Shown here in pieces: positions 3,598-29,620 of a DNA stretch of 64,000 bases. The DNA is from Candidatus Caenarcanales bacterium (lineage in GTDB: Bacteria; Cyanobacteriota; Vampirovibrionia; LMEP-6097), in the NCBI GenBank assembly GCA_013216135.1, contig JABSOS010000004.1, forward strand, positions 79,939-143,938, written 5' to 3'. The notes under the pieces are model-generated. The model was given only the letters and a program-made list of their open reading frames with translations. It did no database searches and was not told where the DNA came from. The translations under genes and the position numbers were made by a program. Position 1 is the stretch's first letter; every line of letters starts with the position of its first letter.

Positions 3598-3642
3598 CTG
3601 TTAATCGATCGGTCACTGGTTCGAATCCAGTCTTGGGAGCCA
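3598..3642 (+). tRNA. tRNA-Asn(GTT) 3'-half fragment (anticodon loop CTGTTAA through T-arm, acceptor 3' strand and CCA); no 5' half, so att-site copy
   Basis: ctgttaa tcgat cggtc ACTGG TTCGAAT CCAGT CTTGGGA G CCA. Perfect T-arm and a GTT anticodon with U33/A37. No complementary acceptor strand TCCCAAG upstream. Near-identical copy at 25703-25752. Confidence 0.6.
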
Positions 3643-3737
3643 TTAAAAGAAAGCCCTGGTCGATTGATTGGGGCTTTTTTGTTTTTAAGGCTTTTAGTCA
3701 TTTTCAAAATATACCGTTAACACTATTAACACTAACT
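3635..3737 (+). repeat. About 100-bp direct repeat (tRNA 3' tip + terminator-like hairpin + flank), copy 1 of 2; partner 29521-29620
   Basis: gggagccattaaaagaaagccctgRtcgattgattggggcttttttgtttttaaggcttt, then catttYcaRcaaatatWccgtWaacaYtatWaacaYta, about 85% identical overall. Contains a GCCC..GGGC stem plus T-tract. Confidence 0.65.
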
Positions 3738-3778
3738 TTCAAAAATATATATTAACTGATATTTGGGTTTTGGAGGTG

Positions 3779-3804
3779 AATTATTATCCTGCGGGATAAT
3801 AATT
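3779..3804. repeat. 26-bp perfect palindrome aattattatccTGCGggataataatt (family copy P1)
   Basis: Exact inverted 11-nt arms. Identical to the copy at 18114-18139. Confidence 0.8.
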
Positions 3805-4148
3805 GAAATGTAATTTTATTTTTATTAGAATAAATGACTTACTTCTGGCTCTTCACCATTTAAGGGAAACTTATGTGAAGGTTTCTAATAAATTATCTAT
3901 GTATAAGCACTATAGGAATAGAAACTCATGGATTTTTTTTAAGCTCTTCCTCATCTGTTTTAAAGTTTCGTAATTGCAACACATTTTCAGCAGCACGGTA
4001 TCGATTATATAGAGATTCTCTTTATGTTTTTAAGGATATATATCCGTAAATTAAATAATTTTGTTTACCTAGCGTCAATGTGAAAGAGAGCAGTACCTAT
4101 AATTCCTCTGACTAAAGTAATTAATGCACCCGTTATATTTGAGCCCAT

Positions 4149-26042: not shown

Positions 26043-28391
26043 CTACTTATAAGTATTAAGTGAACGAAGATTTGATGCTGCTTTGACCATATTTGTTAGT
26101 GACAGTTTTACTTCTTTCCATTCTCTGGTTTTAAGACCACAGTCAGGATTCACCCATAGGTTTCCTCTCGGTAATACTTCTTCAGCTTTGTTCATAAGAT
26201 TAACCATCTCTTCTTCAGGTGGAACTCTTGGAGAATGAATATCATAAACTCCTGGTCCAATCTCATTTGGGTACTTGAATTCCACAAAAGCATTAAGTAA
26301 TTCCATATTTGAACGGCTTGTTTCGATTGTTATTACATCAGCATCCAGATTAGCTATTGAATTAATTATGTCGTTAAATTCTGAATAACACATGTGGGTG
26401 TGAATTTGGGTATCATCTTTTACACTACTTGCACTTAACCTGAAAGCTTTGACTGCCCAGTTTAGATACTCTTCCCACTCACTCTTTTTTAAAGGTAGCC
26501 CTTCACGAAAGGCAGGCTCATCTATCTGAATAGCAGCTATGCCCGCAGTTTCAAGGTCAACTACTTCATCACGAATTGCTAAAGCTATCTGCTGTGCTGT
26601 AACTGAACGAGGTTGATCATCTCGTACAAAGCTCCACTGTAAAATTGTTACAGGACCGGTAAGCATACCTTTTACAGGACGTTCGGTTAATGATTGTGCG
26701 TACTTTGACCAATACACAGTCATTGGTTTAGGACGACTTATATCCCCGAAGATAATCGGAGGTTTGACATAGCGAGTTCCATAGCTTTGTACCCAAGCAT
26801 TACTTGTAAAAGCAAAGCCTTCTAAGTTTTCTCCAAAATACTCCACCATATCGTTCCGTTCAAACTCCCCATGAACTAGCATGTCGATACCTATCTCATC
26901 TTGAAAAGTGACACATTTTTTTGTTTCTTCTTCGAGAAACTGAATATAATCTGCTTCATTCATTGAGCCTTCTTTCCACTGCTTGCGGGCTTTACGCACA
27001 CCTTTTGTTTGTGGAAAAGAACCTATGGTAGTGGTCGGGAACTCCGGAAGTTGAAGTTTGTCTTGCTGTTTAGCTTGTCTGACAGTAAATTCTGAAGAAC
27101 GATTGAAATGGCTATCTCCTATTTCTGTTAAACGGTTTTTAACACTCTGATTATGTATACGCTTGCTTTCAGTACGAGCTTGTATAGCTTCACTATTAGC
27201 TCTAAGAACTTTTTCATCAGCTGTGCCATCAAGAATTTGACTTAGATCTATAAGCTCTTGAAGCTTCTGGTCAGCAAACGCCATCCAGCTCTTAAGCTCA
27301 TCATCAATCTTTGGCTCATTTTTAAGTGTGATCGGGCAGTGAAGTAGTGAACAGCTTGGAGCCAGCCAAAGACGGTCAGTACCTACAGCTGTTTTTGCTT
27401 TTTGCAACAACTCAAGTGAAAGGTCGTAATTATTTTTCCAAATATTGCGCCCATCAACTACACCGAGTGAAAGTATCTTATCACCAGGAAACTTTGTAAA
27501 TATAGTCTCAGCATCTTCTGCTCCACGAACAAAATCAAAGTGCAGAGCCTCGACTGGTAAAGAAAAATACGAATCAAGATTTGATCCAATACTAGCAAAG
27601 TATGTTGTTACAAGTATTTTTGCTTTTCCCTTTACAGCTTTGAGGCGATCATAACTTTTTTTAAAGGCATCGAGTTGCTTCTGGTTGAGATCTGTAGAAA
27701 AGACTGGCTCGTCAAGCTGAACCCACTCAGCTCCAGCAGCAGCAAGTTTTGAAATAATCTCTTCATATACGTCAAGAAGATTATCGAGAAGTGAAAAATG
27801 GTCAAAATCAGGATTTTGGGCATCTTGAACTTTTCCTAGACTGAGGTAAGTTACGGGACCAATTAATACTGGCTTTGCATTGATCCCAAGTGCTTTTGCC
27901 TCAGCAAACTCTTGAAATATTTTGTCACTACTTAATTTAAAGCTTGTATCAGCTTTAAACTCTGGCACTATGTAGTGGTAATTTGTATCAAACCATTTTG
28001 TCATCTCACTTGCAAAGGTAGAGACTTTGCCGGTTTGACAATCTTTTTCATCTTCTAAATCTGAGCTACCACCTTGAGTACCTCGAGCTATAGTGAAAAC
28101 CGTATTAACATCAGCACTTTCACCTGTCGAATTAAATCGAGGAGGAATATTACCAAGCAAACAGCTCATATCAAGCATCTGATCGTAGAACGAGAAGTCA
28201 TTGACTGGTATAAGCTCTATTCCGGCAGCCTGCTGCTTTTTCCAATTGGTCTCCCTGATTGTCTTTCCTGTGGCAAGCAATTCTTCTAAAGCGAGATTAC
28301 CTTTCCAGTAAGCTTCTGTAGCATGTTTTAATTCACGCTTTTCCCCAATTCGAGGGTAACCAAGTATATGTGTTTTAATTGAATTCATCAT
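26043..28391 (-). CDS. metE: Cobalamin-independent methionine synthase (5-methyltetrahydropteroyltriglutamate-homocysteine methyltransferase)
   Basis: HILGYPRIGEKRELKHATEAYW N-terminus and two UroD-like halves; about 782 aa. Start moved to the MMNSIK ATG at 28391, because the longer track ORF would overlap the divergent metR. Confidence 0.9.
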   Translation of the reverse strand: MMNSIKTHILGYPRIGEKRELKHATEAYWKGNLALEELLATGKTIRETNWKKQQAAGIELIPVNDFSFYDQMLDMSCLLGNIPPRFNSTGESADVNTVFTIARGTQGGSSDLEDEKDCQTGKVSTFASEMTKWFDTNYHYIVPEFKADTSFKLSSDKIFQEFAEAKALGINAKPVLIGPVTYLSLGKVQDAQNPDFDHFSLLDNLLDVYEEIISKLAAAGAEWVQLDEPVFSTDLNQKQLDAFKKSYDRLKAVKGKAKILVTTYFASIGSNLDSYFSLPVEALHFDFVRGAEDAETIFTKFPGDKILSLGVVDGRNIWKNNYDLSLELLQKAKTAVGTDRLWLAPSCSLLHCPITLKNEPKIDDELKSWMAFADQKLQELIDLSQILDGTADEKVLRANSEAIQARTESKRIHNQSVKNRLTEIGDSHFNRSSEFTVRQAKQQDKLQLPEFPTTTIGSFPQTKGVRKARKQWKEGSMNEADYIQFLEEETKKCVTFQDEIGIDMLVHGEFERNDMVEYFGENLEGFAFTSNAWVQSYGTRYVKPPIIFGDISRPKPMTVYWSKYAQSLTERPVKGMLTGPVTILQWSFVRDDQPRSVTAQQIALAIRDEVVDLETAGIAAIQIDEPAFREGLPLKKSEWEEYLNWAVKAFRLSASSVKDDTQIHTHMCYSEFNDIINSIANLDADVITIETSRSNMELLNAFVEFKYPNEIGPGVYDIHSPRVPPEEEMVNLMNKAEEVLPRGNLWVNPDCGLKTREWKEVKLSLTNMVKAASNLRSLNTYK

Positions 28392-28454
28392 CTTATCTAA
28401 TGTGGTTTTACCTTTTATGTGCAAAAGTCTACTAAAGCAAAAGGATGAAGTAAA

Positions 28455-29402
28455 ATGATAAATATTCAGGAATGTATGAAAGAAATTCATAATATCGACA
28501 CAAGCTCAATTCTAGAACGAATCCACTTTGAGATTATTGTGGCAGTAGAGGAGTTGGGTACAGTAACATCCGCTGCAAAGAAATTACATCTTAGCCAGTC
28601 AGCCCTAAGTCACAGTATGCGAAAACTTGAAAAATCACTGGGCTTAGAAATCTGGCAGAGACAGGGTCGTAGACTTGTTCTAACACAGGCAGGAGAATAT
28701 TTATTAGCAGTTGCTGAGCGCTCCCTCACACAGTTTAATCATGCTGAAGAGCGCCTTCGATTATTTGCCCAAGGGCAGAAGGGGATTCTTAGAGTCGGTA
28801 TGGAATGTCACCCTTGTTATCAATGGCTATTAAAGGTTGTGGCACCTTATTTAATATCATGGCCTTCTGTAGATATTGATATAAAACAAAAATTTCAATT
28901 TGGAGGGATAGGAGCACTGTTCGGTTACGAGATAGATATGCTTGTTACACCAGATCCTCTTTTTAAAAAGAAGTTGCTATTTGAGCCTGTGTTTGATTAC
29001 GAACAAGTGCTTGTGGTAGGGAAGTCGCATGAACTATATCAAGCAGATTTTATTAATCCAGAGGATTTATCACAAGAAATAGTGATCACTTATCCAGTGT
29101 CAATCGATAGATTAGATATATTCTCACAGTTCATGACTCCAGCCGGAATATACCCAAAAGAGCATAAGGTGATTGAAAATACCGATATCATGCTTCAGAT
29201 GGTTGAGAGTGGAAGAGGCGTGGCTGCTCTACCACGCTGGTTAGTTGAAGAGAGTTCTAAACACTTTCAAGTAGCTCCAGTAGCTCTTGGATCTAAAGGA
29301 ATTCAAAAACAAATATACCTAGGGATTCGTGAGGATGAAGTTAACATTGATTACATTAGTGCATTTCTTCAACTAGCTCGTGAACAGTGCTATGTTAAAT
29401 AA
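28455..29402 (+). CDS. metR: LysR-family transcriptional regulator, MetR-like
   Basis: N-terminal HTH (VTSAAKKLHLSQSALSHSMRKLE) and LysR substrate-binding domain. Divergent from metE across a 63-bp spacer. Confidence 0.75.
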   Translation: MINIQECMKEIHNIDTSSILERIHFEIIVAVEELGTVTSAAKKLHLSQSALSHSMRKLEKSLGLEIWQRQGRRLVLTQAGEYLLAVAERSLTQFNHAEERLRLFAQGQKGILRVGMECHPCYQWLLKVVAPYLISWPSVDIDIKQKFQFGGIGALFGYEIDMLVTPDPLFKKKLLFEPVFDYEQVLVVGKSHELYQADFINPEDLSQEIVITYPVSIDRLDIFSQFMTPAGIYPKEHKVIENTDIMLQMVESGRGVAALPRWLVEESSKHFQVAPVALGSKGIQKQIYLGIREDEVNIDYISAFLQLAREQCYVK

Positions 29403-29520
29403 TGAGGGTGTTTCATGCTTTAGCCTTTAGTTCAATATTTGATAATTTGCAAAAAACTTCATAATGAAAACCAAACCGGAATCAAATTCCACCTCCTTGT
29501 TGTGGAACGCGCCCACTAGG

Positions 29521-29620
29521 GGGAGCCATTAAAAGAAAGCCCTGATCGATTGATTGGGGCTTTTTTGTTTTTAAGGCTTTAAACATTTCAGCAAATATTC
29601 CGTAAACATTATAAACATTA
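29521..29620 (+). repeat. About 100-bp repeat copy 2 (partner of 3635-3737); shares only the last 10 nt of the tRNA fragment
   Basis: gggagccattaaaagaaagccctgatcgattgattggggcttttttgtttttaaggcttt ... Upstream sequence does not fold as a tRNA T-arm. Confidence 0.65.

Follow-up and report, generated by a model that had tools for sequence, protein, structure and literature searches.

A probable tandem array of partly decayed integrative elements at a tRNA-Asn locus of a Caenarcaniphilales genome

According to the Islander survey, a regenerated tRNA gene (tDNA) and a displaced fragment of it mark the two ends of a genomic island, and attP sites centred on the anticodon form a known class (PMC4383910); the classes of attP sublocation were introduced by Williams 2002, cited in the same source. 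Tandem arrays with at least two members were encountered 125 times in this survey, and those with at least three members four times (Hudson, Lau and Williams 2015, PMC4383910). Tandem accretion and the origin of cis-mobilizable elements (CIMEs) are explained by the decay of a resident element, one of whose att sites then receives a newcomer (PMC5704250), as exemplified by the ICESt1-related elements of Streptococcus thermophilus (Pavlovic et al. 2004; reviewed in PMC5704250). For the islands of Dehalococcoides at ssrA, the gene encoding tmRNA, one report describes acquired adaptive cargo that is inserted site-specifically at a single-copy small-RNA gene (PMC3146451). Here, we describe a stretch of 64,000 nt (hereafter the window: positions 79,939 to 143,938 of contig JABSOS010000004.1, assembly GCA_013216135.1, Candidatus Caenarcanales bacterium), which in our view probably holds a tandem, partly decayed array of integrative elements at a single tRNA-Asn(GTT) locus of a Caenarcaniphilales (Melainabacteria) genome. 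The window belongs to a 300-kb scaffold of a short-read metagenome assembly and was read together with 9.5 kb located upstream of it on sequence L003, i.e., 73.5 kb in total; positions upstream of the window carry a negative sign.

Repeat copies derived from tRNA-Asn

Three repeat copies, A, B and C, had been recognised in an earlier note on the window, and all three were recovered by alignments and by exact probes. A and B share 92% identity across 51 nt (3598-3648 versus 25707-25757), whereas A and C share 85% identity across 100 nt (3635-3734 versus 29521-29620). A 25-mer of the T-arm and acceptor region matches at A and B only (0 expected, 100 shuffles), and the 24-mer GGGAGCCATTAAAAGAAAGCCCTG occurs exactly in A and C (0 expected). 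The divergence of A and B begins immediately 3' of GGGAGCCATT. In the following, the tRNA-derived part is referred to as the block and the element to its right in A as Y (Y' at C). A fourth copy, A0, is located outside the window at L003 5597-5801, starting at window -3964 and thus 7.56 kb upstream of A. Beyond A0, A, B, and C, no further copy of block or Y was found in the 73.5 kb.

No tRNA gene was predicted in the window by ARAGORN, and A and B are therefore fragments. A consists of a 45-nt 3' fragment of tRNA-Asn(GTT) with its first base in the anticodon loop. Its identity block (3598-3648, forward strand) spans the tRNA from its anticodon loop, CTGTTAA, up to the CCA at 3642, with TTAAAA added, and shares 98% identity with the intact same-species tRNA-Asn on contig L018. 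A0 is likewise composed of a tRNA fragment beginning at the anticodon loop, followed by Y; over 207 nt its identity to A amounts to 97.1%, with five differing positions, and over 52 nt that to the intact tRNA-Asn on L018 is 100%. The identity block of B (25699-25757, forward strand) starts in the anticodon stem, ends with the TTCAAA behind the CCA at 25751, and carries two substitutions in the T-arm. B matches intact tRNA-Asn over 55-59 nt from the anticodon stem onward, about 53 nt of which are tRNA proper; in case of the same-species gene the identity amounts to 94.9% over 59 nt, and the orientation is direct with respect to A and A0. In C, the last 8 nt of the tRNA are retained (8-10 nt of the block). 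In A0, A, the attR sites of L007 and L008, and in L031 and L032 (related elements introduced below), the block starts with (C)CTGTTAA, and in L014/L011 with the CTTTTAA of tRNA-Lys. As far as the sequences go, this block, which reaches from the anticodon loop or stem to the tRNA 3' end, is that of an anticodon-centred attP.

In the same species, the intact tRNA-Asn has an S8 peptidase gene and fliJ as its neighbours on a separate contig (L018, unitig L019), and is followed by a different terminator and another integrase. A search with GGGAGCCA and the start of Y also led to the intact tRNA-Asn(GTT) of a relative (L006/L023), which is followed by the same Y terminator. The proteins of one 'Candidatus Caenarcaniphilales' metagenome-assembled genome include 100% identical counterparts of the integrase int374 and of MetE encoded in the window, and its FliJ is 97% identical to the FliJ encoded beside the tRNA-Asn in L006. 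On account of these identities, a Legionella-like host, which GC content and effector-like open reading frames had suggested at first, was discarded.

Island E2, its integrase family and element Y

The stretch from A to B, termed island E2 (3598-25757, forward strand, about 22.2 kb), is composed of a left part of 15 kb with defence modules delimited by palindromes and a right part of 7.6 kb, which is collinear with the core of an integrase family. This right part comprises int2, a SIR2-like gene, a reverse transcriptase (RT) gene, DUF3800 and the integrase gene, an architecture also observed in L007, L008, and L011. The tyrosine integrase int374 (24477-25601, reverse strand; PF00589, E 7e-32, with the R...HxxR...H...Y residues visible) directly abuts B and is transcribed away from it. 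Thus, two of the marks used by Islander are present, a displaced 3' tDNA fragment in tDNA orientation at the far end (B) and a tyrosine integrase within the island (int374). All homologues of int374 with an organism name, among 289, belong to Melainabacteria/Cyanobacteriota. A candidate integrase adjoining A (4149-5369) was rejected, since it has no family match.

The equivalent position to that of int374 is held by the integrase of L007, which is 63% identical to it; the integrase of L008 is 56% identical. Read in tRNA orientation, both elements show fliJ, an intact tRNA-Asn, a terminator-bearing P' arm, about 9 kb of island (int2, DUF3854, DUF3987 or D5-like, DUF3800), the integrase, which is transcribed away from the end, a 3' tRNA fragment starting with CTGTTAA and a different chromosomal terminator. 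B occupies the same position and orientation relative to int374 as this integrase-proximal fragment. Synteny of the right-hand chromosomal flank with L007 and L008 was looked for and not found. A third relative is integrated in tRNA-Lys (L011-L013). Its integrase is 54% identical to int374, and by a terminal overlap of 141 nt L014 forms a circle of 8,482 bp, which is 100% identical to the integrated element of L011. The alignments of L014 and L011 have exactly the 50-nt block in common (from the anticodon loop through CCA and 5 nt more), and the attP of L014 equals the left side of attR, the block, and the right side of attL. Since the circle matches the integrated element, members of the integrase family excise in circular form, with an attP that includes the 3' part of the tRNA and the terminator.

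Mosaic arrays at the tRNA locus are common in relatives: L030 contains two sites 177 nt apart, L007 a third site that is truncated in the T-arm, and L011 three additional partial tRNA-Lys blocks of 35 nt, spaced 222 nt, beyond attR (9184-9663). The blocks starting in the T-arm at about 7300-7340 of L007 and about 2030-2100 of L030 are preceded by a conserved AGACTAAGCTG(C/T)GATTGG. Such sites suggest a second type of integrase with a T-arm sublocation as well as repeated decay products.

Within element Y (3649-3745, forward strand), a hairpin with a T-run at about 3649-3690 represents an intrinsic terminator, and the 9-mer TTAACACTA is present twice in tandem at 3717-3734. The terminator-like hairpin that the earlier note had pointed out in A and C proved to be sound, with a hairpin followed by a U-run in both copies (-19.5 and -20 kcal/mol; z -3.3 and -3.6). 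The note had also allowed for a duplication of the sequence downstream of the tRNA gene along with a second tRNA-Asn copy; that Y is such chromosomal downstream sequence is contradicted by the relatives. In L007, a Y-like terminator follows the regenerated tRNA on the island side, and P' arms homologous to Y are present in L007, L031, and L032. L032, a metagenome contig, carries in uninterrupted order an integrase (48% identical), the block, a terminator identical to that in the Y of the window, and island genes, and the left side of B joined to the right side of A yields a reconstructed attP of this L032 type. Furthermore, L020 and L023 are 99.7% identical across 9.5 kb, with the homology ending 2 nt past the CCA; Y is present in L023 and absent from L020. 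All three copies of Y in the 73.5 kb and all five Y-type hits in public data (one genome, four metagenome) directly follow tRNA-Asn 3' sequence. Neither in the 73.5 kb nor among the public genome and metagenome hits was Y found behind an unrelated gene, as would be expected of a dispersed terminator or a repeat of the repetitive extragenic palindromic type, and no match was obtained in the viral contigs searched with Y and the block. Y is thus best regarded as an island-borne arm that would re-supply the tRNA 3' end and the terminator, and neither as chromosomal flank nor as dispersed repeat.

We propose that the 9-mers TTAACACTA are arm-type sites of the integrase. An inverted copy of them (15/18) is found in the putative P arm, between the start of int374 and B (TGGTGTTAATGGTATTAA, 25622-25639, reverse strand). 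The same inverted-arm layout, with other sequences, is seen in L007 (ATTTAGTTTGC / GCAAACTAAAT) and in the attP of L014.

The attP of the family consists of four parts: a P arm by the integrase, a block of approximately 50 nt identical to the tRNA (anticodon loop to CCA plus TT), a P' arm with a terminator of its own, and the proposed arm-type repeats. We presume the following mechanism. Integration by the tyrosine integrase, with a crossover that we infer to lie in the anticodon loop, would regenerate the tRNA and its terminator from island DNA, and the original tRNA 3' fragment would be displaced to the far, integrase-proximal end. A0 and A would represent junctions between elements, each composed of the P side of the left element, the block, and the P' arm (Y) of the right element. 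A would accordingly be the left (attL-type) and B the integrase-proximal right (attR-type) junction of E2, with a 22-kb defence island from A to B and an integrase-less, CIME-like segment of stress genes from A0 to A. C would be a truncated P'-type junction of a further related element that lost its integrase and most of the block by deletion. For E2, we predict an attP in which the B-type block (GGTTCAAATCTAGTCTTGGGAGCCATT) continues into AAAAGAAAGCCC, and an empty site in which the Fic side of A (…AAATGGAACCTGTTAATCG…GGGAGCCATT) continues into CAAATTAATTCAGG. Given its integrase and both arm sites, E2 may still be able to excise. An intact tRNA is absent from the left end of E2, as no tRNA is present in the window or in the 9.5 kb upstream, and fragment A stands in its place; within a tandem array, a fragment is expected at this position. 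The earlier note had read the mosaic of left and right arms as attB, attL and attR, produced by site-specific recombination at one tRNA-Asn locus through possible tandem or nested insertions. A and B agree with this as attL- and attR-type sites with their own integrase, and the insertions are best seen as tandem; no attB was found in the window, and the nested arrangement was not supported.

Integrase-less segments and site C

Segment E1 extends from A0 to A (7.56 kb in total, starting at window -3964), with its right-hand part at 1-3597 (forward strand) of the window. Genes encoding CorA, two MscS, MerR, two Hsp20, DegP/HtrA, and VbhA-Fic were identified by Pfam, and neither Pfam nor the gene table of L003 revealed a recombinase in E1. 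Like a CIME, E1 has att-type flanks and lacks genes for integration and transfer; this holds in part for the segment from B to C, whose block at C is truncated. The stress module of E1 corresponds to L003 5923-13129 (window -3638 to 3568). Its MerR-sHsp-sHsp-DegP part (sHsp, small heat-shock protein) presumably resembles the core of the proteobacterial locus of heat resistance or transmissible locus of stress tolerance (LHR/tLST) without ClpK. A 31-nt direct repeat (388-418 versus 3553-3583, 84%) flanks the Hsp20-DegP-Fic block. Unitig L005 was considered as a strain variant with a different context and rejected, since it is 100% identical to L003 and differs in the gene calls alone.

The segment from B to C (3.77 kb) contains the hairpin Z, a 63-aa open reading frame (ORF), metE, and a divergent metR-like LysR gene. 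Z (25752-25791, no strand assigned) is a perfect 18-bp hairpin directly 3' of B, without U-run (z -8.4) and unrelated to Y; it may belong to the native flank or else form the beginning of the metE/metR segment on its left side. The cobalamin-independent methionine synthase gene metE (26043-28391, reverse strand) and the divergent regulator gene (28455-29402, forward strand) were assigned by Pfam. The nearest named relative of MetE is that of Crocosphaera (83%), and among the best 120 hits all organism-named ones, except for the window's own protein, lie outside Melainabacteria. On the nucleotide level, the segment is 79% identical to L015/L016, contigs with 41% GC, on which metR-metE adjoins transposases in two different contexts; the divergent pair recurs in L015, L016, and L017. 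Composition was tried as proof of a foreign origin and is not decisive, since the GC content is 39% but the G+C content at third codon positions (GC3, 0.29-0.30) is like that of core genes. A recombinase was not found in the segment, nor were convincing terminal inverted repeats or arm repeats. Acquisition of metE/metR is plausible from these comparisons. Regarding the earlier note's claim that metE/metR lie between island junctions, the description holds; we consider acquired cargo of another decayed segment somewhat more likely than native flank.

Site C (29521-29620, forward strand) is composed of the last 8-10 nt of the block (GGGAGCCATT), the Y terminator, which from GGGAGCCA onward matches A0 at 100% over 60 nt, and a tandem pair of 9-mers TAAACATTA (29603-29620). 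Compared to the 9-mers of A, the same two positions are changed in both copies, and no inverted partner of them was found in the window. Such a concerted change is more readily reconciled with the arm of a distinct, though related, element than with random decay. The join W|GGGAGCCATTAAAAG is confirmed by unitig L002, W denoting the sequence upstream of C. A homology of Z to W and the distal part of Y' was tested and rejected, as the alignment is no better than shuffles (observed 22 versus 19.2±2.8). The G+C-rich motif GCGCCCNCTA occurs in the 64 kb only at 25809-25818 and 29509-29518, in direct orientation (0.02 expected; chosen post hoc); the first of these copies follows the CCA of B at a distance of 57 nt, the second precedes GGGAGCCA of C by 2 nt, and the similarity of their surroundings is not significant.

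The DNA right of C (29621-36279, no strand assigned) is island-like, with genes for a 592-aa and a 645-aa protein without family match, a degraded Fic and an MscS. The degraded Fic (31688-31821, in a region 31688-32126 with a VbhA-like 60-aa ORF) is 77% identical on the nucleotide level to the Fic beside A and lies in opposite orientation, and the MscS gene (35321-36278) is 82% identical over 958 nt to an MscS gene of E1. Due to these paralogues, related cargo is present on both sides of metE/metR. No remnant of an integrase or of a family gene and no further block was found right of C, and an exact search with the 592-aa protein for C in another context returned the same scaffold and one unitig only. 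Farther right, direct repeats were noted at 36673-36831 and 39352-39507 (about 160 nt, 82-88% identity, 2.68 kb apart) and at 40432-40497 and 40900-40965 (66 nt, 94%, 468 nt apart).

On balance, we favour C as a truncated attL/P'-type junction, i.e., a relic left by a deletion. Its origin from a second tRNA-Asn downstream of metR, as suggested in the earlier note, is unlikely and gained no positive support. Such a gene would have been the target of an island with the P' arm Y', and its body would later have been deleted except for the last 8 nt. Y' indeed follows tRNA 3' sequence in the right orientation, the 9-mers of C form a distinct variant, as those of a separate element would, the DNA right of C is island-like, and the 18 nt preceding GGGAGCCA agree with the T-arm/acceptor region at 10 positions. 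However, W resembles the tRNA no more than expected by chance (about 45-55% over about 20 nt), and the 75 nt of W have no tRNA fold (z -0.7), in line with the earlier observation that the sequence upstream of C does not fold as a T-arm. Furthermore, no second tRNA-Asn, integrase remnant or displaced fragment exists within 34 kb right of C, and in the relatives, within the stretches available, tRNA-Asn occurs at the fliJ locus only.

Even less probable is that C arose by ordinary duplication or gene conversion of the tRNA-Asn terminator region, or, in a broader version, that Y is a generic terminator repeat. The identity of its first 60 nt to A0 suggests a recent copy, C folds as a strong terminator, and it is located 118 nt past the metR stop between the convergent metR and 592-aa genes, for which it would now serve as the terminator. 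Against this, the copy also spans the tRNA acceptor end and the arm-repeat region, and the occurrence of Y, in the 73.5 kb and in public data alike, is confined to tRNA-Asn 3' sequence; the dispersal behind unrelated genes by which the earlier note would have discarded its reading was not observed.

A more serious competitor, although we still hold it to be rather improbable, regards B and C as formerly one junction (integrase, block, Y'), into which the 3.77-kb segment Z-metE-metR-W was inserted later exactly at the 3' end of the block, duplicating GGGAGCCATT. In this case metE/metR would be the acquired cargo of an integrase-less cis-mobilizable segment, and the array would continue right of C. 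The 10-nt direct repeat GGGAGCCATT bounds the segment, and its removal yields a perfect site of block plus Y' of the A0/A type; the outside affinities of MetE, the similarity to the transposase-flanked metR-metE, the island-like DNA on both sides, and the integrase-less modules that relatives also hold between tRNA-Asn-derived sites (L007, site at 7333; L030) point in the same direction. On the other hand, any truncated block yields the 10-nt 'duplication' automatically, family blocks begin at the anticodon loop and not at the acceptor end, the GC3 of metE/metR is core-like, and the segment has no recombinase, terminal inverted repeats or arm-type repeats. Moreover, B and Z diverge at the natural right edge of the block, which is what a plain attR next to native flank predicts.

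Several observations weigh against the tandem array as formulated above. E1 and the segment from B to C have no integrase; thus, the rule of one own integrase per element fails, and the array is no tandem array in the strict sense of Islander. L003 extends 5.6 kb left of A0 and does not reach an intact tRNA-Asn, and the linkage of the array to the intact tRNA-Asn of L018 is presumed. A block of 8-10 nt as in C is not directly produced by the integrase family, since family blocks start at the anticodon loop. After the first 60 nt, the identity of C to A0 drops to about 62% in the next 40 nt, a pattern that suggests a recent conversion or recombination, which the model does not predict. The distal extension of Y (3746-3905, forward strand) comprises a box like that in the relatives' tRNA-Asn flank, the first copy of the palindrome described below (3780-3803), and N2 (3842-3905). 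It resembles the Y-less tRNA-Asn flank of L020 and the attR flank of L007, and this counts against the simple model because the latter puts native flank after B and not after A; flank may at some time have been captured by the P' arm, or else the course of events was more complex. N2 itself (64 nt) contains an internal CTTCAC...GTGAAG inverted repeat and is 88% identical to L020 681-745, located upstream of an S8-peptidase gene beside the Y-less tRNA-Asn of a related species; it has no Rfam match.

The source of the data also has to be considered, as Logan unitigs of this short-read metagenome assembly break inside every repeat. A misresolved order of the segments between the repeats, possibly with strain mixing, would be in agreement with repeats of 60-207 nt, which exceed the Logan k-mer, and with the unitigs L002, L004, L005, L019, and L035, all of which terminate inside repeats. 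Nevertheless, we judge such an artefact to be highly improbable: A0 and A differ at five positions and C and A0 share 60 nt only, so that they can be bridged by 141-mers and 150-nt reads, a second large contig (0.2-1 Mb class) has the same neighbouring proteins across A0-A and B-C, and every individual junction, including W|GGGAGCCA, is found inside a unitig.

Cargo of E2, palindromes and comparison with known systems

The left part of E2 encodes RT_UG17 and SLATT, a 1272-aa TPR/PIN-like protein, and an SNase (Pfam, PADLOC). The RT of class UG17 (PADLOC E 1e-106) adjoins an RT-associated SLATT effector (E 1e-30) at 8188-10357, a pair of the defence-associated RT (DRT) type. At 18693-22020, int338, a SIR2-like gene (weak PADLOC Aga_SIR2 hits, E 5e-8), and an RT gene of 423 aa are situated on one strand, in the place where related elements hold a DUF3854/DUF3987 replication module; this RT is a generic RT, UG26-like or group-II-like. 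In the region 16691-17994, a sub-threshold Rfam match to sRNA-Xcc1 (34 bits versus a gathering score of 53, E 0.036) is located directly upstream of a 388-aa ORF, for which no informative hit was obtained in Pfam, NCBIfam, PADLOC, PHROGs and PDB sequences. The Rfam scan gave nothing at threshold and no riboswitch upstream of metE. GC3 values range from 0.17 to 0.29 in island genes (most 0.20-0.26) and from 0.20 to 0.31 in core genes (mostly 0.25-0.31); the majority of the island genes thus fall below the core genes.

Palindromes of the form ATTATTATCC-N4-GGATAATAAT (24-26 nt) are located at 3780-3803, 6966-6989, 10918-10941, 15814-15837, 16521-16544, 18115-18138, and 18580-18603, as well as at L003 5777-5800. 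A search with up to three mismatches gave six matches, five of them in intergenic gaps of the island (0.03 expected). The palindromes sit in the gaps of the left 15 kb of E2, plus one in the A0 arm, end 90 nt upstream of the gene for the second tyrosine recombinase int338 (18693-19709, forward strand; PF00589), and separate five or six gene modules, mostly of defence genes. Those at 10918 and 15814 have hybrid arms, with a left arm of the main type and a right arm like the 16521 variant, and the homology of A0 and A stops exactly at the palindrome 3780-3803. As the 6966 copy lies between divergent gene starts, the palindromes may be recombination sites and not mere terminators. int338 is a homologue of the family's int2 (36-39% identical to int2 of L007, L008, L014, and L032). 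It is tempting to speculate, although we consider it unlikely, that the palindromes are sites at which int338 captures and shuffles modules, in a cassette system like that of integrons or pdif carried by a tRNA-integrating element. If so, this would explain both the end of the A0/A identity exactly at a palindrome and the distance of int2 from the island end, which is 15 kb here and 0.5-1.8 kb in the relatives. With integron attC sites and Acinetobacter pdif, the common features are short inverted-repeat sites with a centre of 4-6 nt between modules, beside a tyrosine recombinase, some of them with hybrid arms. In contrast, int338 is no IntI (50.6 bits versus the TIGR02249 cutoff of 265), the sites measure 24-26 nt instead of 57-141 nt, and the gene orientation differs from that of integrons.

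For Melainabacteria, the non-photosynthetic sister group of cyanobacteria, the array offers integrative elements with tRNA targets that are precisely mapped with regard to attP architecture, target, the circular form of a relative, and tandem accretion. In the literature on island mechanisms, at which our search was aimed rather than at the phylum, no case from Melainabacteria was found. One tRNA-Asn locus appears to gather defence genes (RT_UG17-SLATT, SIR2-like plus RT, DUF3800) and stress genes (Hsp20, DegP, MscS, CorA, Fic), and possibly also a vitamin-B12-independent methionine synthase with its regulator, which bears on the ecology of a marine-particle organism. The mechanism is textbook and its general significance modest.

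The relatives L007 and L011/L014 are similar to small integrative replicative elements or phage satellites with integrase and primase-helicase, like the phage-inducible chromosomal islands, in their size of 8.5-9.5 kb, the combination of an integrase and a DUF3987/D5_N-type protein, the integration into tRNA genes, and the formation of circles. E2 differs from these by RT defence genes in place of a DUF3987/DUF3854 module, and no phage packaging or interference genes were identified. The ssrA islands of Dehalococcoides reportedly also occur in tandem; the array differs from them in target gene, phylum, and integrase family. With CIMEs and the ICESt1-related elements the array has in common att-flanked segments without integration genes in tandem with an integrase-bearing element, which fits E1. 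Different from these, the array shows no conjugation or mobilization genes in the window, and the segment from B to C has a truncated right-hand site only. Compared to the tRNA islands of Islander, the array is peculiar in its uncultured melainabacterial host, in having a single member with integrase, in the location of the intact tRNA outside the window, and in a P' arm common to A0 and A that is unusually long (about 160 nt beyond the tRNA). In all other respects compared it is like them, with a tyrosine integrase, a block reaching from the anticodon loop to the tRNA 3' end, a tRNA regenerated from island DNA, a displaced fragment in direct orientation, and an arrangement in tandem.

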